Origin: Hydrolagus colliei
Taxonomy: Eukaryota
Assembly: GCA_035084275.1 (NCBI GenBank)
Contig: CM068758.1
Coordinates: forward strand, 372,001-436,000
DNA length: 64,000 nucleotides
Reading direction: 5' to 3'
The notes beneath the pieces were generated by a model. The model was not told where the DNA came from. It was given only the letters and a program-made list of their open reading frames with translations, and made no database searches. Position numbers and translations under genes: made by a program. This document shows, piece by piece, positions 13,700 to 64,000 of the stretch. Positions within the stretch are counted from its first letter, which is position 1. Every line of letters begins with the position of its first letter.

Positions 13700-13739
13700 G
13701 TAAGTAAACCAGTTACAATGGTGAAATCCTGGTGCAAAA

Positions 13740-34352: not shown

Positions 34353-34641
34353 TCTCTTTCCACCGATAGCCAGGCTTCTCTCTCTCTCTCTCTCTCCCTT
34401 TTGCAGTGTAACGTCGGCTTCATTTTAATTCTCTCATTCCTGCTCCCTGCGTTAGGCCGACAAACCGTCAACTCTCTCTCTCCGCTCAACCCCCCCCCCC
34501 CCGCCCCCACCGCCCTCCCCATTTATGTGGACATGTAAAACGAGTTTGGGTCAACTGCTCTTGTCAAATAATATTACCTTCTTATCTACCGTTTGGTTGT
34601 ATTTAATTATTGAATGCTAAAATCTTGCAATTGTTATTTAG

Positions 34642-37600
34642 TGTGAAAACATTGAGTGCTGGATACAATTCTTTCGAACCAGCCAAACAGAAGGAAATCT
34701 ACAATGGCATCAAAACGTACCTCCAAGAAGGTAAACGTTATTGTTATTTTGGTTAAAGTGATCGTAGTTGAGATGACAATTTGACTGTATCCATGTGTAA
34801 GGAAATTAATTTAGTGCAGCTCTGGTTGCTGGTACTTGTAAAGCTAAACCTAAAGCCAGTAAGAGATTTTGGCTGGTGCTGGTGGCGGTGAGGAAGAAAC
34901 TAGGAATCAGAATAATTTTTTAATTTGACTTTTAGATGAAAACATTAAAGACAGAGTCAAAGTGTTTGTGAAGTATTAAACACACGTTCAACATTAATTA
35001 GTAAAGTTGATTCTCAAATGAATTGAAGCCTTTGTGTAATCACACTTTTCATTCCTTTGTACAGCAGGTCCTAAACCCAAATGCTACAACGCCAGTGACG
35101 CAGCTCTGAACTCTACTGCTTGGTTTGTTAACTACCTCGGACTATACCTGAGCCAAGTGACAGAGGCTGATCTTCTGTCTTTCTCTGATAACAAAGCAAA
35201 GGTAATTGTGAAGATAAAGTCAGCAGAAAACTTTTCTAAGTGTTTTATGCAGAAGAATAAGTTTTCAATGGCTCAATTCTCAATGCAATGCTTGACAATT
35301 CTGCTGTTAATCAGATTATTAGCTGTTGTTGTTGGCTGTGTCAAGGAATGTATGTGTAGATCATTATATGGGTCATTCAGTTCTGGGTTGTATTTCAATC
35401 CACCTCAACTTAATGCGATGGAAGTCACCAAATGAGATCAAAATTGTCTCTGTGGGTTGCCAACCATTTTTGAATTCCCCTTTTTCTTATTAGCCAATAT
35501 AAAGGTAACTGCTGTGGCCTGGCCAATATTGCCCCCGATTCCAAAATTCACAAAAAAAACAAAACCCTTTACATCGATTTGACAATTAACATCGCTGATT
35601 ATGAGAAGCTGCTACAAGAAATTGGCTTCCACATTTGCCCGCACACCATCCCATATTGAATATCAGACTATTTCACGAAGTGAATCATCACCGCATCACA
35701 CCTATTGATCACTGTTCTTGGTTGAGTAAACGTTGCTAATTTCATTTCAATGTTTGTGTTTCCAGCTTCAGGAATTCGCAGCTGATCCTGACAATCTGGC
35801 ATTGCTGGGAAACGTGACGTTGCCAATTGAAGTTGCGAAATTCTGCATTGCATTGGTGCTTGAAGGGAATCCGAATGTTAATATAATAAGGTATGGCAAT
35901 ATATTTCCACCCAAAGATATGAAATCCAAGTTTCTGGTCGAAATCACCTGTCGATCATCGTTCAGGAGGTAGATATTCACAAGTAGAAATTGACTTAAGT
36001 TTGCCAATAAGTAGACAATGATGCCAAATGATTGGACGTTCTTAGTTTTTGATCAGTGTTACTCAAGTCACAAGGAGACACTCTAGAGAGCCATTTTGGG
36101 ATGACCTTGTGGAGAGTCTCATTGGGGATCACTTAGTATCAGGGAGACCTGTTGGTCTGTCACTGACGCAGATTGCAAATACTGTTTTCCAGCCTGCCCG
36201 ATTCTCTGATTTGCTTGATTGCTGGTACAAACGCTCTTCGGTCCGCGAATGAGCAGCAAGTCTTGGCTGTAATCCAAAAGAAAAACCAAGTGTGTCGGGT
36301 GAGCCCCAGCAACAATACAGCACGGCCTCAAGCACCTGTGACGGACGAACAACTGAAGGTAAATAGCAAAGAGCGTTTGACCACCTTGCTGCTCCAATGG
36401 GCTGTCCTTCAGCAGCCAGGTTTGATAATGTGGTCAATATGTGTCGCCTGAATAAACCTGGCACCCAATCTGTTGACTCTGAGGCTTTGAGTGAAGACAT
36501 TTGGCGAAAGGCACAGAAGTCCACGGTCATTGTTGGGAATTTTTAAACGTTTTTCAACTTGATGTATGCGTCCAGTGAAGCTTGAGGACTTACTCTGTTC
36601 TTGTTTCTACAGTTCTCCATATATTTAGTGAGCCAAATTACCAACTTCTCTGTGGTTACTCTGAATCAATTGGGGCAATCAGCTGTGGGTCTATCACTGA
36701 AGCAGATTGCAGATACCGATCGAAATAATCTTCAGCAAGCCCTGCCAAGCCTGGGGCAAGTTATGGGTTGGAATTTTGGACAAGTCCACTTGATTGTGAG
36801 GAATGTGTTGAGCAATGGCTACCAGGTAAGACTTGTATTTATATCTGAGTCCACAAAACGCAGCCTGTAATTATTGTGATTGCATGGGTTTTTATGCAAT
36901 ATACGAGGCATGTTGAGTGGTGGTTAGAGCACTCACCTTCCAAGCGTGAGACCTGTGTTTCGAATCCAGGCAGGTCAAGGCAATGGCTTCCCAATGTTAG
37001 ATGTCGTTTAGAGAAACCTTGAGGTGAGCACATCTCTGGGTTAAACAAACTGAATGACAGGCAGAAAGCAACAAGGGAAGCCAAATGGAAACGGTTTGGA
37101 TCAAACGATAAACCTCACGACTCAACTTTTGTTTCCCCCCCCATTACTCCTGAAAACCTTCCATTTGTTTTCTTTGTTGAAATAGATCCGAGATGAACAG
37201 ACGCTGTTGAGTCTTGGAACCGTCATAGCTGGATGTCCAAGCAGACAATTCCAAAGCATTGAGCACAGACTACTCACCAATGTAACCAGAGACCCGGAGT
37301 TTGTGATCAATATTCAACAGGCCCCACAAGTTGTCCAGAGATTGATCGTTCTGAGGGTGAGTGATCATGAAATATCTGTCAGTAAGCGTCAGGAATATAA
37401 ACCCAAGCCACGCCTTGTTTCCTATTGAGGATTGTATTTCTAGATTGGTTCAATCCTGCCTGCAGACAGTCATAATACTAAACAAAAAACTGCTTGCACA
37501 GTGTGTTTTTGGTCAATTCTGTTGTGTTTAATTCCCATTCAGATATTGAATGCATCAAGTGGCAGTGCAGAAACAGTAAAGGACATTCCCCCAGGTCTAG

Positions 37601-40600
37601 CCAAACAGATCCCACTACTGTACCTGACCTCCTTAAACTTAGATCTTGGCCACATCAACAACAAAGAGTGGCTACCGAGTCAGGTGAGTGAATCGGCCTG
37701 TTACTTTTTTCCAAAGTAAAATAGCCGAATACAGTCCGAACGAATATTGTTGTGGTGGGTTAGTAATCCCACGTCTCTTCAATCCAAAGTTGCTCCACTG
37801 AGTTGAGAGAACCTGAAGGATAGTTGACGGCCTGAATTTAAACATTTCCAATGATTTCTCCCACAGGCCGCGGTGTTTTTTGAAAATATTGTCCGGAAGA
37901 ACAAATTTTTTGACACGTAAGTAATATTTATTCAGAATCTACATATAAAAGAGGTTTAAATCTTATGTTTAAGCGCTATGTCAATGCAAGTTGTTGTTGT
38001 TCAATACGTTAAGGTAGCTCCCGAAGTTGTGATGAGCAAGGCTTTCTAAGAGTAAATGGAATGATTTCTGGTGCAGTTTGTTTCTTCCTAGAATGAAGTG
38101 AAGGGTGTGAATTAACACTGATTTGTTTGCGTAGCTTTTCACCTTCTGTGCTGCGAGGCTTCAGCTGTGGGGCAGTCAAGACCCTGAATTCTACTGACTT
38201 CACTCAGCTGATTCAAGTATTGAAGTACAAGCGGGTCAAACTTGATGAAAGTCAGGTAAGACTGTTTGCTGAAATTGTACGAGAGAGAGAAATGTTTCAT
38301 TGCATTTGGGTTCACTTTCCTTTGTTTATTGGTGAGTTTGAGCCAGGAGTAATTGTTATAGACAGTCCTTTGGGAATTATTACTCTGTTGTGTCAACCCC
38401 TCCACAAAAGTACTCCAGGTTCTGCTGGAATTGATGTCCTCGTTCAGGTAGCCTTTAACAATTGGTTTGCTCTCTCACGTTACAGCTCAGTTGCATATTC
38501 TTTCGACTAAAATCGGATGAAATAGAGGTCGAGGTAGACGAGGTCCCGGAGGATGTTCTGCTGTATTTCAAGTAAGTATTTGTCTTTTGTACATACAACC
38601 ATAAAAGGATGAGAAGTGGAAACCAATTCTGCTTCGCTGGAGACTGGTCCTCCCGTCTACTGACAGAAGGAATACTGTTTTTAAAGAATAGGCAACATAT
38701 ATTTTACCCCAAAGCCTCACACCATTTAAGTATTAAAGATATATTTATATCCACTTGTTTTAGCTCTGCAGAATTCAAAACAACTCCAGAGTGCAAGAAA
38801 TTCTTCAAGGCTGTTGGAAAATCGAACATTAATGCCTTACCAAAGGGATTAGGAAGATACCAATTGTTGCAGAACGCTAAAACCTGCTTGGTAAGAACGG
38901 ATCTTATTTGGTCTTCTGCTATGCTTTTGATTACAGAATCTGTTGTTCAATACAAAGATACTTAAATGGATTGAATTTACTGTACAGACATCATGTGGAA
39001 ATGGTCCAGTGACCGTTGTAACTGTTGAATTATTCTCTCATAACCTTAGGGTATTCGTGAAGGAAGTCTGACAGAAGACAATGTAGAAACATTAGGTGCT
39101 TTGGTCTGTGATCTCGATGGGGCCTCTATCAAGACGTCTCATGTTTCCATTTTGGAGCAATTAAAGCATTGCGTTTCATACACTGAAAGTCAAAAGTCAG
39201 TGATTGAAGCTGTACTCAACAACAAGACAACCAGATACGGGTATGTTTGGAGCTGATTTCCTTTAGATTTCTTGGAGAACCAATATCAGCAGGGTTTCGA
39301 TCTAGAGCTTGGAATAGTTCCTCTCAATCCGCTGCCTGCTGCACTTGTCATTTGCACGCATCCTAAATGGGACTCCCATTGTATTTGCTGTTTGACAATA
39401 ACCTTATTTCATTGAGACGTTGAGAGCCTTGACCTGAGTGTTAGTGTATGGCCTGGAATACTGGACAAATGACAGGGATTATTTCCTTGTAGTTTCTCCA
39501 GGAGATGAGATTTAGATTGGAAACCTCTGATTGGAGATGTGTGAATTCTAGTGAGAAACTGCGCTCAAAATACTTATTGGTGAACTTTTTGTTTGAATAC
39601 AGTCTACCTTCATCATGGACCTCATTGTCGTTGACTGACCTTGGAAACCTACCTTTGGCTTTCACCTTCACATGGAGAAGTGTAAACTTGGTGAGTTTCA
39701 ACTGGTAAAGAATTCTTTCAGATGAAGTTAAGGGTAAAAGTAACTTTCTTTTCCAAAGTATTTTGCATGCTGCTTTACACATTGGAATATGTTGTGGTAA
39801 ACAGTGTTACTCTGTAAACTGGATTTGTCTGTAGTTGACGCTTTATTGGGTTAATTAATCTCTTTGAGGTACTGACTATATTCTACCTTGCAGCCTGCCT
39901 TGAAATATGCCCTCCCAAGATTTCTCAAGAGATTGAAAACTACCAACTCACCGAATGCTGTCCTGGGATTCATCAATCAGTTGAAGTTGCACGCAAACGT
40001 TACAGAAAGTATGTCATTTTCTTACAGGATTGGTTAAAGAAATAACATTGTGTGTGTGTGTGTATATATATATACGTGTGTGCAGTGTACAAATGGATGT
40101 TATATGTAACAAACTGTTGTGTTTGCAGCCTGTACAAATCTCAAAGCGGTCGACATTGATGAGCTAACCCCTGTTAAATATGATGCTACCCAGTTACACA
40201 ACTGTTTGAGTGATCGCGTACTGAAGAATAACATATTTGTATTGGGAACTCTGTCCTTTGATACTGCTCAGCTGCACGTTCTGAAAAACAAACTTGTTAA
40301 GGTAAAAATCCGGCTTGAAACCTTCGTAATAATAAATAATTTGAGAACCAAAGTGAGTTTTATGTTTTCCTTTGTTTAAAACTGCTCTTGATGATCCGTG
40401 TGTAAAATTATCGAGCAAATGATGCAAAACGGAGTAAATTATTATTATTCCAGCGATACAGATTGTTTTATCCTTTCCCTTCCATCACAATCGTTTCACA
40501 ATTATGCAAGAATCCTTCACAGTTGATGTAAATTTGAGTTCTAATAACTGAGTAATGCTATGATGAAGACAAATCCACACTCTTACAATAAGTGCTCGCC

Positions 40601-43600
40601 TGTGTGCTGGACAATAAGACCACATGTTGGGATTGAATCTGATTGTTTGGATCTCTGTGATGCAGCTTTACCCCGGTGGGATCCCAGAAGCTGCAATCCT
40701 ACTGCTGGGCAACATATCTACTGTGTTCAACGCATCCCAAATGAGCAGCTGGAATATAACTCAAGTTGACACACTCGAACTAGTGCTGAGGAATCCGTTA
40801 GAGCACTTCCAGGTACTTAAACTGAGAAATGACGAGATGAGTTTGGATGGAAAGGAAAAGCCCTTTGATGCTCTGATCAGCCATGTTTGAGGAGATTGTC
40901 TAAGGGATGGATGGTGCAGCACTGATTGGTGGGGTTGGGTGTGAGGGTGGGTGTGCGTTTGGGGTTGGGGGTGGAGGTGGAGGAGGTGAAACCCAATTGG
41001 GAATCAAAGAAAGAAAAGTTGAAATGGGGCAAATGTTTGCTATTTATCTGGTGTTTCTCTGTGCAATGATAGCTGATCCGTGTTCACCTCTTACAGGTCA
41101 CGACCATCATTGCAAGATTCTTGGCCTTTGATGGAAAACTGAATGGATCTGCATTGAAAGCTGTCGGTGGTGCAAACCTGTGCCTTCTGAATGAAAACCA
41201 ACTGAGGACAATTTCCTCCCTGGAGTAAGTGATGAAATCTTTCTGATCCACAATCAGGCAAGCAATCAGGAACTGGAGCCATGGTTGCTGTTGATGCTGT
41301 TCTTGGTGTTTGGTATTTTGGTGTATTTGGGGTGGAATGTGCAGCCAATGGAAATATTTTCCCTTTTCTCCCACAGAGATGCAGGAGCTCTAGATATTTC
41401 TTTGTGCAGTCAGTCAAAGAAGAACCTGCTTTACCAGAAAGCTGTTGTTGCTTTGAAGGCTCAGAATATTAACCCGATCCCCCAATTTCAACTGTTAAAG
41501 TCGTACATTAGTAAGTCTCGGAATATTTACCTTTCATTCTTGTCCACTTCATCCATTCGGCCTTAGTTGAGTTCACTGAGTCTTTGTCTGTAAAACAAGA
41601 AACTATTTCAATAGTTATATTAAACATTTTTTTCCTACTTTATAAACAATAATAACTTGCCTTTTTGTCAAGCCATGACTTAGGATATAGCGTATGGCGG
41701 AGCTGAAAGCGGAGGTGGTTCATATACTGTGTTAAGCTGATGGCTCTGATTTTTCCCTTCAGGTGGAGCGAGACTGGTTGATCTGCAAACTCTGGCAAAC
41801 CACACAGTCCATATGGATTTTGCAACCTTCAAGACACTGAATCCTGAAGAAGTGACGGTTGGTACATGGACAATATGTTGGCATCACTGTGGTTGGGGGG
41901 GGGGCATTTCTTTAGCTGCTTCCCTTTGTCCTTCTGTTGGTTCCCTTTGGCGACTCTATGAATGACAGAGATTTGTTAAATGTTTCTCTTTTAGAATCTG
42001 ACAGCTGAGAACCTGATTGACTTACTTGGAAGTAACCTGCCTGCACTGATAACTGGATTCAATGAAACTGTTGTGATAGTTTGGGTGAATTCACACTTTG
42101 TATCTGAAGTCAGGAAAGTTGGGCTTACGGGAGGAATTCCAGATCCTCCTCTAGGTATGTTCCTCGTCAACGGCAAATAAATCTGCACATCAATTGCGGC
42201 TTTTGAAACACTGCTCTGAGGAGGATATCCCCCTCTGATAATGTTTGCACTATTTCTGTTAGATTTGCTTTGGATTCTGTTGTGAGTGTTTCCAATAGTC
42301 ATTAAATTCAGATGATTTTCTAATAAGTACATGACACTATTTTTGACAACAGATATATTTTATTAAGGATCAGATAAATGTAGTGCTCTATAGTTTTATG
42401 TATCTTAATACTGTACTTTTCTGTTTGACTTTTCCAACAGAAACTGTTTTATGTGAAGCCAGAAATAGGTAAGTTTCTTCTGTTTCCCGCAGTGCCGTTG
42501 TCCTCACACTCAGTCCAAAGTCACAAAGACTTGGAGAAGTCTCTCTCAACAATATGGCTAGATTGGTGATTAGGCAGTGAAGCACATGGACATTACAGAA
42601 TCCTGCCTCTGTTATCAGTCACAAAACCCACCTGTTTAACCGGTATCCTCTGTTTCCTTACAGTTCAGCGGTGAATGATTTCCTGATGACCCTCAACAGG
42701 ACCCAACTCTGCAATGTTGCCATTATAGACTACGCATGTGCTCGGGTAAGCTGTGTTCCGCTCTAGAATTCCACACAACAGTGTCTTCCTTCACGCGGTT
42801 CATCCACAGGGAACAATGTTGTAGTCCTTCCCAACTTTCTTGGTTCCCTATACAAATGTAGTCAAATTGTTGTATCATCTCCGCCTGTCGAAATAATACC
42901 TCTGATCGATTGTTTTCAGATAACTTAACAGTTTCCATTATTTGTCAACCGATTCCTTGCAGATTGAACTGCTGGCAAATCTATCCAGTTATGACGTGAC
43001 TGCTCTGTTTGACTGCTACACTCGCTCAAAGGCTTTGAGGGTCGCAGATGAAAAACCGCTGACTCTGTTTATTCAAAAGCTTGACAGAACCACACTTAAC
43101 CAGGCGTTGGACATGTTTAATAAAAAGGTAAGCCCTTATTGATTCCATACTGTAGGGGTACTACTGTAAACTATTAAACGCCTCCTTACTGATTCACATT
43201 AAACTTATTGGTGTGTTTCAGACTTTAAATATGTCTTCAATTGGTCTGGAAAGCAAGACAACGTTCTTTAACGCCTTGTGGGAGAATGTGAAGCTCAACG
43301 TGACCAGCCCTGCTCTCCTGGCCAAATGGTTTCAGCAAAGATTCAGACCATTCATTGCAGGCATTCCTCAATCAGTCCTGACTGACCTTCTGGTGAGGAA
43401 TGTCACATGTGATGGATACCAAGCAGTGTAAGTCTATTGTTTTCTCTTACAATCACCTGGTGCTGGGAATTGCAGAACAATCCTGGGTATAAACAGTGAT
43501 GGAAAAGAAGGAAACATGGAACAATAAACTGACTTGTGCTGTCAATTTGTCTTCACTTAGTGTGAAAGGCCTGAGTGATGGATTTGGAGAGATGCCACTG

Positions 43601-46216
43601 CCAACGAGACACACCATACTGCAAGTCTGGATCCTTAGATACCTGAACAGCACAGGTAACCTGGATCCAATCAGTATCTGTAAATCAATCATTTCTTTCA
43701 CATGTCGGCAAACGCCGAGTTTGTAAACGCACAATAGATAACCTTCTTTGCCATTCATCTCCAGGTGCTGGCTGTATCAGCAACACCAATGGCTCTCGAG
43801 ACTGGCTGGTGAAGAATTGGGGAACGTTCAGCAAACTGGCTGATATAAAGCATCTGTCGGACTTGAATTCCAATTTCAGCGCAGTAAGTGACTGACACAT
43901 TTTGTTTTTTTTTGAGATGATAAGCAGCAGGAGATGCTTTGTGTTCTGAAGACATCAGTACCAACAACAACGACAAAATTACATTGATAGAGTGCCTTTC
44001 ATGTCGGGAGGACGTGCCAAGGCGCTGAGATCAAAATGATGACATGAATTAAATGTTGCTTTCATTAATATTATCAAACATACCCCAAATATCTTGCTAA
44101 ACATCAAGTATTGTATTTGTTTCACCGAGTAATCTCTGTCATCATTTGTGGTTACGTCAAAAAATACTTTTTCACACGGAGTCATCTTTTCTGACAGGTT
44201 GAAGCAGGGGGCTTGCTGACTGTATCACAACTTGGAGAATTTGTGGGGAGAAATGGTACCTTGAGAAATGTTTATGACGTACACAAGCTTTTCACCATCA
44301 TCACAAATGTTACCGTGACTGAATTCCTGGACAGCTTTGCCTCGGCTGCCTACAGGGTAGGAGAACTTTGTGTGTTGTTTTTAATATAACCTGTATCCGT
44401 CAAGCACACATTTGGAGTTTAGTATGTGAGCACTGAGAGACAATGGCTCTGCCCTTTTCCATGCTGTGTTTATAGTTGGTTGATGTGCTCTCTGTCTCCT
44501 GGCATTGAAGCAGTTGATTTATTCCTAAATGTTTACAGAACCACGTGAAGCTGTCCCCTAACGTCACAACAGCTTTCCTGAGGGAGGTTCTGAACCGCAC
44601 TCAGTCGATCCTTTCAAACGCAGACTATAATGAGCTCTCCATCTGGTTCAACAATAGACTGGCATTCCTCCTGCCGGGACTCACCGAACAGTTGGTGCCT
44701 TTGGTCCTGGTCACTCAGAGCTGCAAAGGATCCCAATTCATGTAAGTTTGATGCACTTTGTTTATACTCAGTGGATTGGAGTCCCAAAGTGAATTTCATA
44801 TTAAGCGTTTGTAAATTTAGTGGTAGCTTTCTGTTTCATAAATTATGTTGTACGTTGGTGACATAACCCTCTAATGCCTTGAATTTGACCTTTTATAGTG
44901 TATCTGTGCTGAGCTCCATCAAGCCACCGTTGTATTCTGATATTCAAGAAGCCATTTATGCAAAGATACTACACTTTAATAAAGGTAACAACACAGATTT
45001 CATCCATTAGAACCTCGCAATGCAATTTAACCCAACGCAGTTCCCACCATTTGAAGTACTAAATGTTGCTGTTTGTTGGGTATTGTCAATAAGCAGGAAT
45101 GATGCTGTGGGCAACATTACATTGGTCATCGTTTAACCTAATCTCATTTTTGTGGCTATTTGCTTCAGCGCCTCGGGACGTCCTCCCAACATGAAAGCTG
45201 CTAATCCAGCTCAATAGAAACAACAACAACAACAACTTTGATCCACGCCGGACGGCGTCTCAGAGCGTTATTGAGTAAGACATCATTGAATAAGATGGGA
45301 GCTTGAACTGAACGTTTTTTCCACTTTCTTTCCAGAATTCCCCCTTCGGTGCTATGAAAACAACAATTTTGTTGTTTATCTGAACAACACCTTCCGAAAT
45401 TTCTCTAAACATTTGAGTTTGACGGATTTGGTCTCATTGATACCGAAGAACAGAGCAGCTCAGGTAAGAACACCAACAACAAAATGACACTTGTATAGAC
45501 GGCGCCTTTCCCGTCAGCAGGACATCCCAAGGCGCTGGACAGTCACTGTGTCAGTCCCGAGCTGGGGACAGGGTGGGGAGGGAAACGGGGGTATTAGGAG
45601 TTGCCGGTGGGACCATATTTAAGTTCAATCATTTTTTTGTCTGTTTTTCTTCCAGGTTTTGAATGCGACTGAACCCACAGATGTGGCTGATTTGCTGAGC
45701 AGACCTGAATTCATCGATGACAACAGCAATCTGACTCTGTTGTTACTGAGCTACCAATCCATCCAGAAACTAGGAATATTTGTGGACAGATTCAACCAAA
45801 ACAGTCACAATGTAAGTGGCAGATGGTTTAGAACAGAACGCAGCATCTCTTCTGGGTCAGTGGCTTTAGGCCGACGTTAATAATGAGAGGTCGAAATGTT
45901 CTATTGTTCCACACGGTTGACAAACTCAGTCAATCAGGAATGTTGTAGTTGGAATGGGATTTTCTGTTCTGTGTGATTAAGAGAAGTTAAATATTAATGT
46001 TATTCTACGTTTACAGAGTGACCTGAGAGACACCACCCTGGCTGCCATCATGGAGGGTCTGTGGCCACTGTTTGCCAGGAGCTTGTCTGAACTGAGTGAC
46101 GCCCAAGCCAAGGTGTGGCTTGATGCCAGGCTGGAACCGTATCTGCCTTTCATCAGCCAAGACCTGCTGGCTTCTCAAGACACCCTGAGAGTGAAGTGCC
46201 AACCCTACAGAACAAT
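34642..46216 (+). CDS. Mesothelin-family (MSLN/MSLNL/otoancorin/stereocilin superfamily) giant protein, repeat unit 1: 32 exons, 1,428 codons
   Basis: Exons (all AG/GT, phases compatible): 34642-34730, 35065-35201, 35766-35890, 36193-36358, 36613-36825, 37186-37356, 37543-37683, 37867-37916, 38135-38255, 38486-38571, 38764-38890, 39050-39240, 39603-39690, 39894-40008, 40129-40301, 40666-40812, 41097-41224, 41377-41510, 41763-41857, 41995-42154, 42441-42468, 42664-42745, 42963-43127, 43222-43427, 43561-43655, 43765-43883, 44198-44356, 44539-44741, 44899-44984, 45336-45463, 45656-45811, 46017-46216. Sum 4,284 nt, no in-frame stop. Confidence 0.88.
36912..36980 (+). mobile_element. tRNA-derived SINE head in an array intron (copies at +11,901 and +23,802)
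   Basis: gtggttagagcactcaccttccaagcgtgagacctgtgtttcgaatccaggcaggtca, homologous to the heads at 12905-12965 and 26325-26400. Confidence 0.6.
38135..42154 (+). CDS. Mesothelin-homologous region (exons 9-20 of the unit; copies at 50036-54055 and 61937->64000)
   Basis: Collinear similarity to human mesothelin as I recall it: SPSVLRGFSC/SPRQLLGFPC, VKLDESQLSC/VKLSTEQLRC, LGALVCDL/LGGLACDL, RYGLPSSWT/PYGPPSTWS, QLHVLKNKLVKLYPGGIPE/QLDVLKHKLDELYPQGYPE, WNIT/WNVT, VHMDFATFKTL/VSMDLATFMKL, GLTGGIP/GLQGGIP. Confidence 0.92.
43960..44030 (-). mobile_element. SINE/L2 tail fragments in array introns (also 45165-45270, 45475-45540; repeated in unit 2)
   Basis: (AAC)n...gagtgcctttcatgtcgggaggacgtgccaaggcgctg, the same tail as at 13270-13330 and 24750-24820. 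Confidence 0.55.
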
Positions 46217-52500: not shown

Positions 52501-55500
52501 CTGTGTGCTGGACAATAAGACCACATGTTGGGATTGAATCTGATTGTTTGGATCTCTGTGATGCAGCTTTACCCCGGTGGGATCCCAGAAGCTGCAATCC
52601 TACTGCTGGGCAACATATCTACTGTGTTCAACGCATCCCAAATGAGCAGCTGGAATATAACTCAAGTTGACACACTCGAACTAGTGCTGAGGAATCCGTT
52701 AGAGCACTTCCAGGTACTTAAACTGAGAAATGACGAGATGAGTTTGGATGGAAAGGAAAAGCCCTTTGATGCTCTGATCAGCCATGTTTGAGGAGATTGT
52801 CTAAGGGATGGATGGTGCAGCACTGATTGGTGGGGTTGGGTGTGAGGGTGGGTGTGCGTTTGGGGTTGGGGGTGGAGGTGGAGGAGGTGAAACCCAATTG
52901 GGAATCAAAGAAAGAAAAGTTGAAATGGGGCAAATGTTTGCTATTTATCTGGTGTTTCTCTGTGCAATGATAGCTGATCCGTGTTCACCTCTTACAGGTC
53001 ACGACCATCATTGCAAGATTCTTGGCCTTTGATGGAAAACTGAATGGATCTGCATTGAAAGCTGTCGGTGGTGCAAACCTGTGCCTTCTGAATGAAAACC
53101 AACTGAGGACAATTTCCTCCCTGGAGTAAGTGATGAAATCTTTCTGATCCACAATCAGGCAAGCAATCAGGAACTGGAGCCATGGTTGCTGTTGATGCTG
53201 TTCTTGGTGTTTGGTATTTTGGTGTATTTGGGGTGGAATGTGCAGCCAATGGAAATATTTTCCCTTTTCTCCCACAGAGATGCAGGAGCTCTAGATATTT
53301 CTTTGTGCAGTCAGTCAAAGAAGAACCTGCTTTACCAGAAAGCTGTTGTTGCTTTGAAGGCTCAGAATATTAACCCGATCCCCCAATTTCAACTGTTAAA
53401 GTCGTACATTAGTAAGTCTCGGAATATTTACCTTTCATTCTTGTCCACTTCATCCATTCGGCCTTAGTTGAGTTCACTGAGTCTTTGTCTGTAAAACAAG
53501 AAACTATTTCAATAGTTATATTAAACATTTTTTTCCTACTTTATAAACAATAATAACTTGCCTTTTTGTCAAGCCATGACTTAGGATATAGCGTATGGCG
53601 GAGCTGAAAGCGGAGGTGGTTCATATACTGTGTTAAGCTGATGGCTCTGATTTTTCCCTTCAGGTGGAGCGAGACTGGTTGATCTGCAAACTCTGGCAAA
53701 CCACACAGTCCATATGGATTTTGCAACCTTCAAGACACTGAATCCTGAAGAAGTGACGGTTGGTACATGGACAATATGTTGGCATCACTGTGGTTGGGGG
53801 GGGGGCATTTCTTTAGCTGCTTCCCTTTGTCCTTCTGTTGGTTCCCTTTGGTGACTCTATGAATGACAGAGATTTGTTAAATGTTTCTCTTTTAGAATCT
53901 GACAGCTGAGAACCTGATTGACTTACTTGGAAGTAACCTGCCTGCACTGATAACTGGATTCAATGAAACTGTTGTGATAGTTTGGGTGAATTCACACTTT
54001 GTATCTGAAGTCAGGAAAGTTGGGCTTACGGGAGGAATTCCAGATCCTCCTCTAGGTATGTTCCTCGTCAACGGCAAATAAATCTGCACATCAATTGCGG
54101 CTTTTGAAACACTGCTCTGAGGAGGATATCCCCCTCTGATAATGTTTGCACTATTTCTGTTAGATTTGCTTTGGATTCTGTTGTGAGTGTTTCCAATAGT
54201 CATTAAATTCAGATGATTTTCTAATAAGTACATGACACTATTTTTGACAACAGATATATTTTATTAAGGATCAGATAAATGTAGTGCTCTATAGTTTTAT
54301 GTATCTTAATACTGTACTTTTCTGTTTGACTTTTCCAACAGAAACTGTTTTATGTGAAGCCAGAAATAGGTAAGTTTCTTCTGTTTCCCGCAGTGCCGTT
54401 GTCCTCACACTCAGTCCAAAGTCACAAAGACTTGGAGAAGTCTCTCTCAACAATATGGCTAGATTGGTGATTAGGCAGTGAAGCACATGGACATTACAGA
54501 ATCCTGCCTCTGTTATCAGTCACAAAACCCACCTGTTTAACCGGTATCCTCTGTTTCCTTACAGTTCAGCGGTGAATGATTTCCTGATGACCCTCAACAG
54601 GACCCAACTCTGCAATGTTGCCATTATAGACTACGCATGTGCTCGGGTAAGCTGTGTTCCGCTCTAGAATTCCACACAACAGTGTCTTCCTTCACGCGGT
54701 TCATCCACAGGGAACAATGTTGTAGTCCTTCCCAACTTTCTTGGTTCCCTATACAAATGTAGTCAAATTGTTGTATCATCTCCGCCTGTCGAAATAATAC
54801 CTCTGATCGATTGTTTTCAGATAACTTAACAGTTTCCATTATTTGTCAACCGATTCCTTGCAGATTGAACTGCTGGCAAATCTATCCAGTTATGACGTGA
54901 CTGCTCTGTTTGACTGCTACACTCGCTCAAAGGCTTTGAGGGTCGCAGATGAAAAACCGCTGACTCTGTTTATTCAAAAGCTTGACAGAACCACACTTAA
55001 CCAGGCGTTGGACATGTTTAATAAAAAGGTAAGCCCTTATTGATTCCATACTGTAGGGGTACTACTGTAAACTATTAAACGCCTCCTTACTGATTCACAT
55101 TAAACTTATTGGTGTGTTTCAGACTTTAAATATGTCTTCAATTGGTCTGGAAAGCAAGACAACGTTCTTTAACGCCTTGTGGGAGAATGTGAAGCTCAAC
55201 GTGACCAGCCCTGCTCTCCTGGCCAAATGGTTTCAGCAAAGATTCAGACCATTCATTGCAGGCATTCCTCAATCAGTCCTGACTGACCTTCTGGTGAGGA
55301 ATGTCACATGTGATGGATACCAAGCAGTGTAAGTCTATTGTTTTCTCTTACAATCACCTGGTGCTGGGAATTGCAGAACAATCCTGGGTATAAACAGTGA
55401 TGGAAAAGAAGGAAACATGGAACAATAAACTGACTTGTGCTGTCAATTTGTCTTCACTTAGTGTGAAAGGCCTGAGTGATGGATTTGGAGAGATGCCACT

Positions 55501-58117
55501 GCCAACGAGACACACCATACTGCAAGTCTGGATCCTTAGATACCTGAACAGCACAGGTAACCTGGATCCAATCAGTATCTGTAAATCAATCATTTCTTTC
55601 ACATGTCGGCAAACGCCGAGTTTGTAAACGCACAATAGATAACCTTCTTTGCCATTCATCTCCAGGTGCTGGCTGTATCAGCAACACCAATGGCTCTCGA
55701 GACTGGCTGGTGAAGAATTGGGGAACGTTCAGCAAACTGGCTGATATAAAGCATCTGTCGGACTTGAATTCCAATTTCAGCGCAGTAAGTGACTGACACA
55801 TTTTGTTTTTTTTTGAGATGATAAGCAGCAGGAGATGCTTTGTGTTCTGAAGACATCAGTACCAACAACAACGACAAAATTACATTGATAGAGTGCCTTT
55901 CATGTCGGGAGGACGTGCCAAGGCGCTGAGATCAAAATGATGACATGAATTAAATGTTGCTTTCATTAATATTATCAAACATACCCCAAATATCTTGCTA
56001 AACATCAAGTATTGTATTTGTTTCACCGAGTAATCTCTGTCATCATTTGTGGTTACGTCAAAAAATACTTTTTCACACGGAGTCATCTTTTCTGACAGGT
56101 TGAAGCAGGGGGCTTGCTGACTGTATCACAACTTGGAGAATTTGTGGGGAGAAATGGTACCTTGAGAAATGTTTATGACGTACACAAGCTTTTCACCATC
56201 ATCACAAATGTTACCGTGACTGAATTCCTGGACAGCTTTGCCTCGGCTGCCTACAGGGTAGGAGAACTTTGTGTGTTGTTTTTAATATAACCTGTATCCG
56301 TCAAGCACACATTTGGAGTTTAGTATGTGAGCACTGAGAGACAATGGCTCTGCCCTTTTCCATGCTGTGTTTATAGTTGGTTGATGTGCTCTCTGTCTCC
56401 TGGCATTGAAGCAGTTGATTTATTCCTAAATGTTTACAGAACCACGTGAAGCTGTCCCCTAACGTCACAACAGCTTTCCTGAGGGAGGTTCTGAACCGCA
56501 CTCAGTCGATCCTTTCAAACGCAGACTATAATGAGCTCTCCATCTGGTTCAACAATAGACTGGCATTCCTCCTGCCGGGACTCACCGAACAGTTGGTGCC
56601 TTTGGTCCTGGTCACTCAGAGCTGCAAAGGATCCCAATTCATGTAAGTTTGATGCACTTTGTTTATACTCAGTGGATTGGAGTCCCAAAGTGAATTTCAT
56701 ATTAAGCGTTTGTAAATTTAGTGGTAGCTTTCTGTTTCATAAATTATGTTGTACGTTGGTGACATAACCCTCTAATGCCTTGAATTTGACCTTTTATAGT
56801 GTATCTGTGCTGAGCTCCATCAAGCCACCGTTGTATTCTGATATTCAAGAAGCCATTTATGCAAAGATACTACACTTTAATAAAGGTAACAACACAGATT
56901 TCATCCATTAGAACCTCGCAATGCAATTTAACCCAACGCAGTTCCCACCATTTGAAGTACTAAATGTTGCTGTTTGTTGGGTATTGTCAATAAGCAGGAA
57001 TGATGCTGTGGGCAACATTACATTGGTCATCGTTTAACCTAATCTCATTTTTGTGGCTATTTGCTTCAGCGCCTCGGGACGTCCTCCCAACATGAAAGCT
57101 GCTAATCCAGCTCAATAGAAACAACAACAACAACAACTTTGATCCACGCCGGACGGCGTCTCAGAGCGTTATTGAGTAAGACATCATTGAATAAGATGGG
57201 AGCTTGAACTGAACGTTTTTTCCACTTTCTTTCCAGAATTCCCCCTTCGGTGCTATGAAAACAACAATTTTGTTGTTTATCTGAACAACACCTTCCGAAA
57301 TTTCTCTAAACATTTGAGTTTGACGGATTTGGTCTCATTGATACCGAAGAACAGAGCAGCTCAGGTAAGAACACCAACAACAAAATGACACTTGTATAGA
57401 CGGCGCCTTTCCCGTCAGCAGGACATCCCAAGGCGCTGGACAGTCACTGTGTCAGTCCCGAGCTGGGGACAGGGTGGGGAGGGAAACGGGGGTATTAGGA
57501 GTTGCCGGTGGGACCATATTTAAGTTCAATCATTTTTTTGTCTGTTTTTCTTCCAGGTTTTGAATGCGACTGAACCCACAGATGTGGCTGATTTGCTGAG
57601 CAGACCTGAATTCATCGATGACAACAGCAATCTGACTCTGTTGTTACTGAGCTACCAATCCATCCAGAAACTAGGAATATTTGTGGACAGATTCAACCAA
57701 AACAGTCACAATGTAAGTGGCAGATGGTTTAGAACAGAACGCAGCATCTCTTCTGGGTCAGTGGCTTTAGGCCGACGTTAATAATGAGAGGTCGAAATGT
57801 TCTATTGTTCCACACGGTTGACAAACTCAGTCAATCAGGAATGTTGTAGTTGGAATGGGATTTTCTGTTCTGTGTGATTAAGAGAAGTTAAATATTAATG
57901 TTATTCTACGTTTACAGAGTGACCTGAGAGACACCACCCTGGCTGCCATCATGGAGGGTCTGTGGCCACTGTTTGCCAGGAGCTTGTCTGAACTGAGTGA
58001 CGCCCAAGCCAAGGTGTGGCTTGATGCCAGGCTGGAACCGTATCTGCCTTTCATCAGCCAAGACCTGCTGGCTTCTCAAGACACCCTGAGAGTGAAGTGC
58101 CAACCCTACAGAACAAT
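46543..58117 (+). CDS. Mesothelin-family giant protein, repeat unit 2 (32 exons, unit-1 coordinates +11,901)
   Basis: Coding sequence looks identical to unit 1. Exon 46017-46216 ends in phase 2 (ACA AT|gt) and joins 46543 (ag|T GTG AAA) to give ...CQPYRTIVKTLS..., so the frame continues across units. Confidence 0.86.
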
Positions 58118-58443
58118 GTAAATACCGTGCGGGCTTTGTGTGTGGGTGGGTGCCTCTTCCACCGATAGCCAGGCTTCTCTCTCTCTCTCTCTCTCCCTTT
58201 TGCAGTGTAACGTCCGGCTTCATTTTAATTCTCTCATTCCTGCTCCCTGCGTTAGGCCGACAAACCGTCAACTCTCTCTCTCCGCTCAAACCCCCCCCCC
58301 CCCCGCCCCCACCGCCCTCCCCATTTATGTGGACATGTAAAACGAGTTTGGGTCAACTGCTCTTGTCAAATAATATTACCTTCTTATCTACCGTTTGGTT
58401 GTATTTAATTATTGAATGCTAAAATCTTGCAATTGTTATTTAG

Positions 58444-61400
58444 TGTGAAAACATTGAGTGCTGGATACAATTCTTTCGAACCAGCCAAACAGAAGGAAAT
58501 CTACAATGGCATCAAAACGTACCTCCAAGAAGGTAAACGTTATTGTTATTTTGGTTAAAGTGATCGTAGTTGAGATGACAATTTGACTGTATCCATGTGT
58601 AAGGAAATTAATTTAGTGCAGCTCTGGTTGCTGGTACTTGTAAAGCTAAACCTAAAGCCAGTAAGAGATTTTGGCTGGTGCTGGTGGCGGTGAGGAAGAA
58701 ACTAGGAATCAGAATAATTTTTTAATTTGACTTTTAGATGAAAACATTAAAGACAGAGTCAAAGTGTTTGTGAAGTATTAAACACACGTTCAACATTAAT
58801 TAGTAAAGTTGATTCTCAAATGAATTGAAGCCTTTGTGTAATCACACTTTTCATTCCTTTGTACAGCAGGTCCTAAACCCAAATGCTACAACGCCAGTGA
58901 CGCAGCTCTGAACTCTACTGCTTGGTTTGTTAACTACCTCGGACTATACCTGAGCCAAGTGACAGAGGCTGATCTTCTGTCTTTCTCTGATAACAAAGCA
59001 AAGGTAATTGTGAAGATAAAGTCAGCAGAAAACTTTTCTAAGTGTTTTATGCAGAAGAATAAGTTTTCAATGGCTCAATTCTCAATGCAATGCTTGACAA
59101 TTCTGCTGTTAATCAGATTATTAGCTGTTGTTGTTGGCTGTGTCAAGGAATGTATGTGTAGATCATTATATGGGTCATTCAGTTCTGGGTTGTATTTCAA
59201 TCCACCTCAACTTAATGCGATGGAAGTCACCAAATGAGATCAAAATTGTCTCTGTGGGTTGCCAACCATTTTTGAATTCCCCTTTTTCTTATTAGCCAAT
59301 ATAAAGGTAACTGCTGTGGCCTGGCCAATATTGCCCCCGATTCCAAAATTCACAAAAAAAACAAAACCCTTTACATCGATTTGACAATTAACATCGCTGA
59401 TTATGAGAAGCTGCTACAAGAAATTGGCTTCCACATTTGCCCGCACACCATCCCATATTGAATATCAGACTATTTCACGAAGTGAATCATCACCGCATCA
59501 CACCTATTGATCACTGTTCTTGGTTGAGTAAACGTTGCTAATTTCATTTCAATGTTTGTGTTTCCAGCTTCAGGAATTCGCAGCTGATCCTGACAATCTG
59601 GCATTGCTGGGAAACGTGACGTTGCCAATTGAAGTTGCGAAATTCTGCATTGCATTGGTGCTTGAAGGGAATCCGAATGTTAATATAATAAGGTATGGCA
59701 ATATATTTCCACCCAAAGATATGAAATCCAAGTTTCTGGTCGAAATCACCTGTCGATCATCGTTCAGGAGGTAGATATTCACAAGTAGAAATTGACTTAA
59801 GTTTGCCAATAAGTAGACAATGATGCCAAATGATTGGACGTTCTTAGTTTTTGATCAGTGTTACTCAAGTCACAAGGAGACACTCTAGAGAGCCATTTTG
59901 GGATGACCTTGTGGAGAGTCTCATTGGGGATCACTTAGTATCAGGGAGACCTGTTGGTCTGTCACTGACGCAGATTGCAAATACTGTTTTCCAGCCTGCC
60001 CGATTCTCTGATTTGCTTGATTGCTGGTACAAACGCTCTTCGGTCCGCGAATGAGCAGCAAGTCTTGGCTGTAATCCAAAAGAAAAACCAAGTGTGTCGG
60101 GTGAGCCCCAGCAACAATACAGCACGGCCTCAAGCACCTGTGACGGACGAACAACTGAAGGTAAATAGCAAAGAGCGTTTGACCACCTTGCTGCTCCAAT
60201 GGGCTGTCCTTCAGCAGCCAGGTTTGATAATGTGGTCAATATGTGTCGCCTGAATAAACCTGGCACCCAATCTGTTGACTCTGAGGCTTTGAGTGAAGAC
60301 ATTTGGCGAAAGGCACAGAAGTCCACGGTCATTGTTGGGAATTTTTAAACGTTTTTCAACTTGATGTATGCGTCCAGTGAAGCTTGAGGACTTACTCTGT
60401 TCTTGTTTCTACAGTTCTCCATATATTTAGTGAGCCAAATTACCAACTTCTCTGTGGTTACTCTGAATCAATTGGGGCAATCAGCTGTGGGTCTATCACT
60501 GAAGCAGATTGCAGATACCGATCGAAATAATCTTCAGCAAGCCCTGCCAAGCCTGGGGCAAGTTATGGGTTGGAATTTTGGACAAGTCCACTTGATTGTG
60601 AGGAATGTGTTGAGCAATGGCTACCAGGTAAGACTTGTATTTATATCTGAGTCCACAAAACGCAGCCTGTAATTATTGTGATTGCATGGGTTTTTATGCA
60701 ATATACGAGGCATGTTGAGTGGTGGTTAGAGCACTCACCTTCCAAGCGTGAGACCTGTGTTTCGAATCCAGGCAGGTCAAGGCAATGGCTTCCCAATGTT
60801 AGATGTCGTTTAGAGAAACCTTGAGGTGAGCACATCTCTGGGTTAAACAAACTGAATGACAGGCAGAAAGCAACAAGGGAAGCCAAATGGAAACGGTTTG
60901 GATCAAACGATAAACCTCACGACTCAACTTTTGTTTCCCCCCCCATTACTCCTGAAAACCTTCTATTTGTTTTCTTTGTTGAAATAGATCCGAGATGAAC
61001 AGACGCTGTTGAGTCTTGGAACCGTCATAGCTGGATGTCCAAGCAGACAATTCCAAAGCATTGAGCACAGACTACTCACCAATGTAACCAGAGACCCGGA
61101 GTTTGTGATCAATATTCAACAGGCCCCACAAGTTGTCCAGAGATTGATCGTTCTGAGGGTGAGTGATCATGAAATATCTGTCAGTAAGCGTCAGGAATAT
61201 AAACCCAAGCCACGCCTTGTTTCCTATTGAGGATTGTATTTCTAGATTGGTTCAATCCTGCCTGCAGACAGTCATAATACTAAACAAAAAACTGCTTGCA
61301 CAGTGTGTTTTTGGTCAATTCTGTTGTGTTTAATTCCCATTCAGATATTGAATGCATCAAGTGGCAGTGCAGAAACAGTAAAGGACATTCCCCCAGGTCT

Positions 61401-64000
61401 AGCCAAACAGATCCCACTACTGTACCTGACCTCCTTAAACTTAGATCTTGGCCACATCAACAACAAAGAGTGGCTACCGAGTCAGGTGAGTGAATCGGCC
61501 TGTTACTTTTTTCCAAAGTAAAATAGCCGAATACAGTCCGAACGAATATTGTTGTGGTGGGTTAGTAATCCCACGTCTCTTCAATCCAAAGTTGCTCCAC
61601 TGAGTTGAGAGAACCTGAAGGATAGTTGACGGCCTGAATTTAAACATTTCCAATGATTTCTCCCACAGGCCGCGGTGTTTTTTGAAAATATTGTCCGGAA
61701 GAACAAATTTTTTGACACGTAAGTAATATTTATTCAGAATCTACATATAAAAGAGGTTTAAATCTTATGTTTAAGCGCTATGTCAATGCAAGTTGTTGTT
61801 GTTCAATACGTTAAGGTAGCTCCCGAAGTTGTGATGAGCAAGGCTTTCTAAGAGTAAATGGAATGATTTCTGGTGCAGTTTGTTTCTTCCTAGAATGAAG
61901 TGAAGGGTGTGAATTAACACTGATTTGTTTGCGTAGCTTTTCACCTTCTGTGCTGCGAGGCTTCAGCTGTGGGGCAGTCAAGACCCTGAATTCTACTGAC
62001 TTCACTCAGCTGATTCAAGTATTGAAGTACAAGCGGGTCAAACTTGATGAAAGTCAGGTAAGACTGTTTGCTGAAATTGTACGAGAGAGAGAAATGTTTC
62101 ATTGCATTTGGGTTCACTTTCCTTTGTTTATTGGTGAGTTTGAGCCAGGAGTAATTGTTATAGACAGTCCTTTGGGAATTATTACTCTGTTGTGTCAACC
62201 CCTCCACAAAAGTACTCCAGGTTCTGCTGGAATTGATGTCCTCGTTCAGGTAGCCTTTAACAATTGGTTTGCTCTCTCACGTTACAGCTCAGTTGCATAT
62301 TCTTTCGACTAAAATCGGATGAAATAGAGGTCGAGGTAGACGAGGTCCCGGAGGATGTTCTGCTGTATTTCAAGTAAGTATTTGTCTTTTGTACATACAA
62401 CCATAAAAGGATGAGAAGTGGAAACCAATTCTGCTTCGCTGGAGACTGGTCCTCCCGTCTACTGACAGAAGGAATACTGTTTTTAAAGAATAGGCAACAT
62501 ATATTTTACCCCAAAGCCTCACACCATTTAAGTATTAAAGATATATTTATATCCACTTGTTTTAGCTCTGCAGAATTCAAAACAACTCCAGAGTGCAAGA
62601 AATTCTTCAAGGCTGTTGGAAAATCGAACATTAATGCCTTACCAAAGGGATTAGGAAGATACCAATTGTTGCAGAACGCTAAAACCTGCTTGGTAAGAAC
62701 GGATCTTATTTGGTCTTCTGCTATGCTTTTGATTACAGAATCTGTTGTTCAATACAAAGATACTTAAATGGATTGAATTTACTGTACAGACATCATGTGG
62801 AAATGGTCCAGTGACCGTTGTAACTGTTGAATTATTCTCTCATAACCTTAGGGTATTCGTGAAGGAAGTCTGACAGAAGACAATGTAGAAACATTAGGTG
62901 CTTTGGTCTGTGATCTCGATGGGGCCTCTATCAAGACGTCTCATGTTTCCATTTTGGAGCAATTAAAGCATTGCGTTTCATACACTGAAAGTCAAAAGTC
63001 AGTGATTGAAGCTGTACTCAACAACAAGACAACCAGATACGGGTATGTTTGGAGCTGATTTCCTTTAGATTTCTTGGAGAACCAATATCAGCAGGGTTTC
63101 GATCTAGAGCTTGGAATAGTTCCTCTCAATCCGCTGCCTGCTGCACTTGTCATTTGCACGCATCCTAAATGGGACTCCCATTGTATTTGCTGTTTGACAA
63201 TAACCTTATTTCATTGAGACGTTGAGAGCCTTGACCTGAGTGTTAGTGTATGGCCTGGAATACTGGACAAATGACAGGGATTATTTCCTTGTAGTTTCTC
63301 CAGGAGATGAGATTTAGATTGGAAACCTCTGATTGGAGATGTGTGAATTCTAGTGAGAAACTGCGCTCAAAATACTTATTGGTGAACTTTTTGTTTGAAT
63401 ACAGTCTACCTTCATCATGGACCTCATTGTCGTTGACTGACCTTGGAAACCTACCTTTGGCTTTCACCTTCACATGGAGAAGTGTAAACTTGGTGAGTTT
63501 CAACTGGTAAAGAATTCTTTCAGATGAAGTTAAGGGTAAAAGTAACTTTCTTTTCCAAAGTATTTTGCATGCTGCTTTACACATTGGAATATGTTGTGGT
63601 AAACAGTGTTACTCTGTAAACTGGATTTGTCTGTAGTTGACGCTTTATTGGGTTAATTAATCTCTTTGAGGTACTGACTATATTCTACCTTGCAGCCTGC
63701 CTTGAAATATGCCCTCCCAAGATTTCTCAAGAGATTGAAAACTACCAACTCACCGAATGCTGTCCTGGGATTCATCAATCAGTTGAAGTTGCACGCAAAC
63801 GTTACAGAAAGTATGTCATTTTCTTACAGGATTGGTTAAAGAAATAACATTGTGTGTGTGTGTGTATATATATATACGTGTGTGCAGTGTACAAATGGAT
63901 GTTATATGTAACAAACTGTTGTGTTTGCAGCCTGTACAAATCTCAAAGCGGTCGACATTGATGAGCTAACCCCTGTTAAATATGATGCTACCCAGTTACA
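58444..64000 (+). CDS. Mesothelin-family giant protein, repeat unit 3 (exons 1-15, cut by the window end; coordinates +23,802)
   Basis: Same exons as unit 1. The last partial exon starts at 63931 (CTNLKAVDIDELTPVKYDATQL...). Confidence 0.86.

Follow-up and report, generated by a model that had tools for sequence, protein, structure and literature searches.

Introduction

Intragenic arrays under concerted evolution are already known, and the repeats of nebulin and filaggrin serve as comparisons for the array described here. In LPA, the KIV-2 unit measures ~5.6 kb and carries two exons, of 160 and 182 bp, with up to 40 repeats per allele (PMC11201333). Members of the mesothelin, otoancorin and stereocilin family are GPI-anchored solenoids (PMC2628672, PMC10035497), and a catshark relative, scyTo_0003439 (P0176), has been detected in a sperm proteome (PMC11083954 Table 2). 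Among the matches listed for the mesothelin literature, in a library of mostly open-access papers, none described a mesothelin-like gene of giant size or with repeated modules in a fish.

Here we analyse a window of 64,000 nucleotides from Hydrolagus colliei, in which a first-pass annotation had recognised nearly identical 11.9-kb units, proposing either an array like LPA KIV-2 with a much larger coding module or a mis-expanded or collapsed assembly. We argue that the array is probably a real intragenic coding macrosatellite, made up of the homogenised internal modules of a giant holocephalan gene of the mesothelin family.

Results

Self-BLAST of the window gave a single period of 11,901 bp, beginning at the first base past a gap, and 34354-52099 matched 46253-64000 with 99.966% identity. 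TRF listed nothing in the array, the longest TRF period (500) being below the unit length. About 2.5 copies lie inside the window, and the array is bounded by the gap on the left and by the window edge on the right:

34353-46252, + strand: repeat copy A, beginning at the contig edge, with exons 1-32 between 34642 and 46216
46253-58153, + strand: repeat copy B, a complete 11,901-bp unit with 32 exons, 4,281 coding nt and 7,620 intronic nt
58154-64000, + strand: repeat copy C, partial, with exons 1-14, continuing past the window end

The first-pass annotation had reported only two internal substitutions, both intronic C/T changes, and had proposed a full alignment of the units. That alignment confirmed both, with two substitutions and no indels in the 17,599 bases compared from 34500 onward, a copy divergence of 1.1e-4 (Poisson 95% range 1.4e-5 to 4.1e-4), but three indel sites near the gap had been missed:

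41951 (copy A, C) and 53852 (copy B, T), unstranded: copy variant, a CpG transition in intron 19
37162 (copy A, C), equal to 49063 (copy B, C), against 60964 (copy C, T), unstranded: copy variant in intron 5
34357, 34415 and 34490, unstranded: three homopolymer-length indel sites, in copy A only, at most 140 bp from the 200-N gap and contig end
40049-40074, unstranded: (TG)7(TA)6 tract in intron 14, the same in all three copies

The indel sites at 34357-34490 are probably uncorrected read-end errors. Elsewhere the introns, homopolymers and (TG)n(TA)n tract had been described as looking identical between copies, and this held: besides the tract, 7/7 homopolymers of at least seven bases and 6/6 microsatellites of copy B were matched in every comparable copy, copy A being compared beyond its first 150 bp. 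Such matches carry little weight, since assemblers of long reads use overlapping reads to correct one another. Assemblers that do so can confuse tandem or haplotype copies and leave false duplications near contig ends (PMC10462168). Here the first unit opens at the very end of a contig, next to a gap, with indels confined to its first 140 bp and none in the 17.6 kb of the array that includes the microsatellites, as might be seen if a real array of differing copies had been misrepresented, either smoothed by read correction or stitched in tandem from the units of both haplotypes. We regard such misrepresentation as unlikely, and the survival of two substitutions through correction argues against it. 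These two variants, 4.8 kb apart, set three unit types (C-C, C-T and T-?), where two alleles of a single-copy locus would yield at most two. Both are transitions and one lies at a CpG (P = 0.11 and 0.027 under random error); two variants are thin evidence for an array.

The 32 exons of a unit close in frame head to tail, and across copies A-C in the window 78/78 exons have GT-AG borders and 3,459 aa are read without a stop, the protein copies being 100% identical. By this exon model the locus consists of head-to-tail exon-intron units in one reading frame, as a coding macrosatellite does. The default model gives 1,427 aa per unit, and the 1,428-aa module of the first-pass annotation is recovered if exon 2, whose acceptor is a tandem CAGCAG, is spliced at its alternative AG. 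There are 34 N-glycosylation sequons in the unit. The R-X-X-R motif by which a furin site would be recognised is absent from the 1,427 aa, and the unit has no furin site of the kind that lies between MPF and mesothelin in MSLN proper. The natural phase of the protein is offset from that of the DNA unit:

42441-54055, + strand: the sole complete protein module in natural phase, starting with exon 21 in copy A and ending with exon 20 in copy B

This module runs from three ~190-aa helical repeats, which match no Pfam family, into a mesothelin-like half that ends at a GLTGGIP motif, after which a GPI-type tail comes in the terminal modules of relatives. Two candidate exons were set aside. An extra exon at 45169-45274 was superfluous, exon 29 joining the exon at 45336 in frame. 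A hydrophobic in-frame stretch in intron 20, considered as a relic GPI-tail exon, comes after two stops on read-through of exon 20; with a hydrophobicity no higher than 4th among the 96 intron frames, it was treated as chance.

To the left of the array lie two further features:

34153-34352, unstranded: scaffold gap of 200 N, a nominal size
33976-34152, - strand: last coding exon of a fascin gene, truncated (Pfam Fascin, E 3e-10)

Gaps of 200 N are a scaffolding convention (PMC12134992). That this one cuts the last fascin exon had been overlooked, and the upstream fascin exons, expected to the right of the gap, are absent from the window. Because the fascin gene is cut, the array is not contiguous with the left contig, which holds fascin and a neighbour labelled RNF216 in the first-pass annotation; array and RNF216 are on different contigs, and Pfam gave no match for the single exon submitted from this putative RNF216. 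Extreme identity, an adjoining gap and a gene broken by the scaffold join are also what might be left behind if a single-copy 11.9-kb segment had been written several times. We hold such a pure artefact to be highly improbable: a single-copy segment would offer reads no tail-to-head junction, the 32 introns all look ordinary, the junction keeps the reading frame and matches that in the shark proteins, and three unit types are present.

Old, decayed SINE fragments had also been claimed inside the unit. Comparison with the left contig gave 17 matches at 76-96% identity, one of them a mere C-run, all in introns and none in exons (0/17), which bears out decayed dispersed repeats:

36922-36977, unstranded: dispersed-repeat fragment in intron 5, 89.6% identical over 48 nt to 26323-26369 and 77% to 12918-12964
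43962-44028, unstranded: dispersed-repeat fragment in intron 26, 76-96% identical to several places on the left contig, with similar pieces at 45164-45272 and 45466-45545

The fragment at 36922-36977 looks like the head of a tRNA-derived SINE, a label given on appearance; ARAGORN found no genes and Rfam no matches in the unit.

Membership in the mesothelin family was indicated by profile matches to PF06060 in the following region:

38764-42154, + strand: mesothelin domain region, exons 11-20 of copy A, with Pfam PF06060 matches

Exons 11, 12, 16 and 19 match collinearly (profile 131-171, 173-236, 361-402 and 504-533), exon 12 at 28.0 bits against a cut-off of 25.8 and the other three below it; the other 23 of the 27 exons scanned gave no PF06060 match. 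Full-length relatives score far above the cut-off. A PDB sequence search with exon 12 returned chance matches alone (E 0.26 or worse). A relative from Callorhinchus aligns here:

41763-44356, + strand: exons 19-27, including the 28-nt exon 21, gap-free alignment to Callorhinchus milii LOC121850278

This protein (P0001) of 352 aa is 81% identical to the window unit without gaps. Its AlphaFold model is all-helical (pLDDT 85.9), and the confident part is the short-repeat region, outside the mesothelin domain. Fold searches with this model, in place of the window protein, gave no clear match: generic solenoids only (best Z 6.8), and mesothelin chains no better than E 0.09-0.17 (mesothelin 7ued at E 0.086, probability 0.97). 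A second Callorhinchus protein, A0A4W3JVW9 (P0020), comprises one module in natural phase and carries a hydrophobic tail; its identity to the window unit is only 40%, and it clusters with terminal modules. Unlike the window array, both are fragments or single modules.

The sequence search returned 13 giant proteins of 2,585-8,225 aa, 11/13 from nine elasmobranch species, and shark and ray relatives of 2,600-7,400 aa repeat the same module as the window unit. They include Rhincodon LOC109913006, Pristis LOC127573574, Amblyraja LOC116985943 and Scyliorhinus scyTo_0003439, together with giants of Narcine, Heterodontus, Pristiophorus and Heptranchias annotated as 'uncharacterized'. Two joined units align across the module junction over 2,675-2,852 aa at 49-53% identity with 6/7 giants among the matches listed, and with the seventh, Amblyraja, over 2,309 aa. 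These proteins resemble the window in the module itself, in the junction after GLTGGIP, in collinearity over two units and, in 6/11 elasmobranch proteins, in homogenised internal copies, seen as an internal run at at least 90% identity: Narcine at 99.4% over 3,405 aa (period 1,448), Heterodontus at 97.9%, Pristiophorus at 97.3% and Heptranchias at 95.6% (period 1,263), Rhincodon at 92.7% (period 1,261) and Amblyraja at 90.2%. Such a run is absent in 5/11, and in the apparently full-length Pristis protein (6,965 aa) the four modules are just 40-61% alike. By k-mer offsets, 32/131 family proteins of at least 700 aa contain a stretch of 300 aa that recurs elsewhere in the protein at 95% identity or more. 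The period is 1,427 aa in our window against 1,448 in Narcine and ~1,262 in four shark lineages; that these four share one period makes the repeat older than its homogenisation. Window copies are 100% identical in protein, and homogenisation of introns is visible there and invisible in the relatives' protein records.

These giants bear on the assembly in both directions. The internal copies of shark orthologues, 93-98% and not 100% identical, are what misrepresentation of the window array would lead one to expect, whereas Narcine and two further relatives reach 99.2-99.4% over 1,768-3,405 aa, which extends near-identity to other assemblies. The giant proteins are themselves assembly predictions and could share the same bias. 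Of the assembly alternative offered by the first-pass annotation, the pure single-copy form is unlikely given the elasmobranch orthologues, and smoothing or haplotype stitching is a stronger, though still unlikely, rival.

Within one elasmobranch species, the internal modules of these relatives share 96-99.9% identity, against 63-84% between species, and in the window 100% protein identity compares with 81% to Callorhinchus; copies are more alike within than between species, with Pristis the exception. In trees, terminal modules of different species cluster with one another, as do penultimate ones, and the unit from the window is placed with the non-terminal modules (SH-aLRT 100 and 99) as a long branch whose placement among internal module classes has support of 90-92 only. 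The trees were quick searches: the 52-row tree left out matches shorter than 600 aa, the 34-row tree is its subset, and the label suffix 'T' was assigned automatically, which mislabels truncated records, e.g. NarcineB_m2T. Within-species homogeneity and the positional grouping of terminal modules argue for concerted evolution and not for pure artefact, so that we most likely see a genuine repeat of ancient origin whose uniformity is maintained by recombination.

At a mutation rate of 7e-10, borrowed from shark, the copies last shared an ancestor ~8e4 generations ago (range 1e4-2.9e5). The first-pass view of an ancient unit in near-identical copies agrees with the multi-module architecture shared with elasmobranchs and the divergence of 1.1e-4. 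It had further proposed very recent amplification or concerted evolution; the homogenised internal modules of relatives favour the latter, but 'very recent' was overstated, being unneeded because elasmobranchs share the architecture and the divergence corresponds to ~8e4 generations. One recent, lineage-specific amplification of a single module, instead of long-term concerted evolution, would accord with a divergence ~18-fold below the nucleotide diversity of the epaulette shark (0.002, a different species), with Pristis lacking homogenised copies and with a comparison that rests on one holocephalan array. We give it only a slim chance, since homogenised internal modules occur in 6/11 elasmobranch proteins and one period is common to four shark lineages; the Callorhinchus gene, in pieces of internal type (P0001) and terminal type (P0020), would also fit an assembly broken by an array.

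Discussion

The repeat, its exon model, its family and its pattern in relatives were observed directly, and a coding macrosatellite would account for them as follows. Each 11.9-kb unit would supply the 32 exons of one complete ectodomain module, and the donor past the mesothelin domain would be spliced, in phase, to the exon that opens the following module. A run of n units would thus read as a single ORF of n x 1,427 aa. Following the plan of the relatives, the protein would have a signal peptide, a diverged first module, homogenised internal modules, a diverged penultimate and a terminal module and a GPI-type tail; the two ends of the gene would lie beyond the window or in the gap. Within a species, unequal crossing-over and gene conversion may hold the internal units nearly identical down to their introns, and these units would drift between species as the edge modules escape homogenisation. 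We infer this recombination mechanism, as well as expression of the locus, the anchor, the function and copy-number polymorphism.

Most likely the gene encodes an alpha-solenoid of great length on the cell surface, heavily N-glycosylated and GPI-anchored, the anchor and expression being presumed; the N- and C-termini of relatives are hydrophobic, as judged by eye. The protein would most likely act as a spacer, or tether the cell to a mucin-like matrix, and copy number would set its reach. More tentatively, the whole 32-exon ectodomain might be a VNTR unit under concerted evolution since the chimaera/shark split, with alleles stepping by ~1,400 aa and possibly displayed on sperm. If so, the length of a sperm-surface solenoid could be under sexual selection, and assemblies would systematically break or collapse the array, which would hence have been overlooked. 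The repeated module may also explain several shark annotations that start inside a module. The design is apparently common to cartilaginous fishes, whose uniform inner and diverged edge modules form a series on the reach of homogenisation.

Compared with known systems, the locus is like LPA KIV-2 in its tandem exon-and-intron units, in frame within one gene, and the likeness drawn by the first-pass annotation is sound, the module being 11.9 kb against ~5.6 kb. Copy-number polymorphism is proven for LPA and is a prediction for the window array. With 32 exons and 4,281 coding nt, the unit has ~12x the coding length of KIV-2, and a whole multi-domain ectodomain as the repeated unit stands out among intragenic arrays. 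The unit shares mesothelin-domain homology with the mesothelin, otoancorin and stereocilin family, and the all-helical model of its Callorhinchus relative would be in keeping with a solenoid. In human mesothelin a single domain is accompanied by a furin site, whereas the window unit is without R-X-X-R, carries the extra ~190-aa repeats and is repeated whole. The giant design also suggests that, among surface solenoids of this family, human mesothelin is one of the short forms.

Array structure and gene content

A self-alignment shows an array of 11,901-bp units in tandem in the right part of the window, where 34354-52099 matches 46253-64000 at 99.966%. The full list of differences between copies holds only two substitutions, each C/T.

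Differences between array copies, and the gap to their left
34153-34352: gap of 200 N
34357, 34415 and 34490: three homopolymer-length indel sites, all within 140 bp of the gap
41951 versus 53852: C/T variant, intronic, at a CpG
37162 and 49063 versus 60964: C/T variant, intronic

From 34500 onwards, the 17,599 bases compared contained two substitutions and no indels, a divergence of 1.1e-4 (Poisson range 1.4e-5 to 4.1e-4). A (TG)7(TA)6 tract shows no difference among the three copies, and the homopolymers (7/7) and microsatellites (6/6) of copy B are matched in the other copies where comparable. The first-pass annotation was therefore right that introns and microsatellites are near-identical between copies and that both internal substitutions are intronic C/T changes. 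The old SINE relics it described stand as dispersed-repeat fragments common to the array and the left contig (17 matches, 76-96%; 17 in introns, 0 in exons); that these are SINEs we only infer, and ARAGORN and Rfam gave no match on the unit.

Read in three frames, each unit contains 32 exons (4,281 nt, 1,427 aa), one residue short of the 1,428 aa first proposed, although a tandem CAGCAG acceptor at exon 2 can supply the extra residue. Each of the 78 exons in the window is bounded by GT-AG, and exon 32 runs in frame into exon 1 of the next copy, giving 3,459 aa free of stops; the protein of the array copies is identical. Of 27 exons scanned, four match the Pfam Mesothelin family, collinear with the profile, one of them above the curated cut-off. 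A protein search with a profile from three related exons had a sole match, Callorhinchus milii LOC121850278, whose gap-free alignment to unit residues 817-1168 at 81% independently supports exons 19-27 and suggests a holocephalan distinct from C. milii. The 1,427-aa unit includes three repeats of ~190 aa (~20-27% alike) and 34 N-glycosylation sequons, and has no R-X-X-R furin motif.

One-module relatives cover the unit from about residue 886 round to about residue 882, after which they have a hydrophobic tail, so the repeated unit amounts to a whole ectodomain, naturally bounded in intron 20. A GPI-tail-like hydrophobic stretch, in frame after two stops in this intron (42155-42440), was rejected as chance, ranking fourth of 96 intron frames by hydrophobicity.

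Genomic surroundings

Genes on the left contig
13602-23988 (+): four 3' exons of a gene that we take to be RNF216-like, convergent with fascin
33976-34152 (-): last coding exon of the fascin gene at the contig end, cut by the gap

Fascin and RNF216 are presumably also arranged tail to tail in human. The last RNF216-like exon codes for a long His-rich, poly-Pro tail. Because the left contig ends inside the fascin exon, the array adjoins neither gene. The cut exon has no match elsewhere in the window. Since upstream fascin exons were not seen in the window, either the gap is large, concealing the remainder of fascin and the start of the mesothelin-like gene, or the contig with the array is misplaced. 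Gaps of 200 N are described as a scaffolding convention (PMC12134992).

Composition shifts at the gap, with GC of 47.2% (1-34152) versus 41.5% (34353-64000) and 0.59 versus 0.17 G/C runs of at least 10 per kb. Introns measure 94-564 nt in the array; those of the left contig reach several kb, and one of them holds an imperfect inverted repeat (21631-21804, 80% over 179 nt).

Relatives and probable concerted evolution

A search with the Callorhinchus fragment returned 293 representatives. Among the 150 matches listed, 131 have at least 700 aa, and 32 of these have a 300-aa stretch that recurs elsewhere in the same protein at 95% identity or more. Near-identical internal repeats are thus a common feature of this family. 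A search for long relatives gave 13 proteins (11 from nine elasmobranch species, one from axolotl, one other); these giants are annotated as uncharacterised or mesothelin-like, and two joined window units align to them across the module junction at ~50%. A near-identical internal run is present in six of the 11 elasmobranch proteins and absent from five, including that of Pristis, which is apparently complete with four modules 40-61% alike.

Near-identical internal runs in elasmobranch proteins
Narcine: 99.4% over 3,405 aa, period 1,448
Heterodontus: 97.9%, period 1,263
Pristiophorus: 97.3%, period 1,263
Heptranchias: 95.6%, period 1,263
Rhincodon: 92.7%, period 1,261
Amblyraja: 90.2%

In module trees from quick searches (52 and 34 modules), terminal modules, including that of Callorhinchus P0020 (A0A4W3JVW9), and penultimate modules cluster by position across species, while amplified internal modules cluster by species. 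The window unit sits on a long branch within the non-terminal modules (SH-aLRT 100 and 99). A period common to four shark lineages, with sequence particular to each species, fits the expectation from concerted evolution, which the first-pass annotation had suggested; the amplified internal modules of elasmobranchs are 96-99.9% identical within and 63-84% between species.

Among other relatives, P0003, P0004, P0008, P0018, P0050 and others carry homogenised repeats with periods of 89, ~195, 350, 410 and 600 aa; the sub-blocks amplified seem to differ between lineages of the family. Whole-module repeats, 97-99% identical, occur in P0006 (Ambystoma), P0027 and P0139 (periods 1,627, 1,403 and 1,010 aa), which fall outside the chondrichthyan clade of the module tree and are possibly of independent origin. 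Two annotated Narcine proteins, P0170 and P0177, have a near-identical internal module in common and may be halves of a single gene split at the array.

Reliability and age of the array

Copy number and unit order are provisional, taken as assembled. Long-read assembly software corrects bases by means of overlapping reads and can mix up tandem and haplotype copies close to contig ends (PMC10462168), so homopolymer identity is weak evidence. A pure assembly artefact is nevertheless highly improbable: the array junction is an ordinary in-phase intron and matches the junction in the shark proteins, a single-copy segment would give no tail-to-head junction, and the two variants make three unit types, which two alleles at one locus cannot supply. 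Both variants are transitions and one involves a CpG; random error would yield these with probabilities of 0.11 and 0.027, a suggestive pattern that rests on two sites. We conclude that the array is a real feature, and probably a genuinely homogenised one.

At 7e-10 mutations per base per generation, the rate given for another species, the epaulette shark (PMC10587355), the copy divergence of 1.1e-4 amounts to ~81,000 generations (range 10,000-293,000). It is also ~18-fold below that species' nucleotide diversity (0.002; PMC10587355). Unit turnover looks fast relative to allelic divergence, but this does not require a very recent date in years, and the very recent amplification first proposed is too strong a reading.

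Likely function and comparison with known systems

Published descriptions make mesothelin, otoancorin and stereocilin helical solenoids with a GPI anchor, mesothelin binding MUC16 and the ear proteins probably attaching to acellular gels (PMC2628672, PMC10035497). The Callorhinchus fragment, modelled from 28 aligned sequences, is all-helical (pLDDT 85.9). Fold searches with the model returned nothing beyond generic solenoids (best Z 6.8, rmsd 5.3, 208 aligned) and sub-threshold mesothelin rows. We infer that the array encodes a glycosylated tether or spacer of great length on the cell surface, with a reach that would scale with unit number. The catshark relative scyTo_0003439 appears in a published table of sperm proteins (PMC11083954, Table 2), and a mesothelin-like protein of quail is reported from seminal foam (PMC12853081); these give no more than a lead towards a role on sperm.

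No paper on giant repeated mesothelin-like genes was found among the papers listed in searches of the mesothelin literature, incomplete in coverage. Copy-number polymorphism is the defining property of a VNTR, for which the array is a candidate. LPA KIV-2, as described in PMC11201333, has a ~5.6 kb unit with two exons in up to 40 repeats. The array works like KIV-2, as seen here in the unit organisation of one assembly. With 32 exons and a coding length ~12 times that of KIV-2, its unit is indeed the larger coding module that the first-pass annotation had set beside KIV-2.
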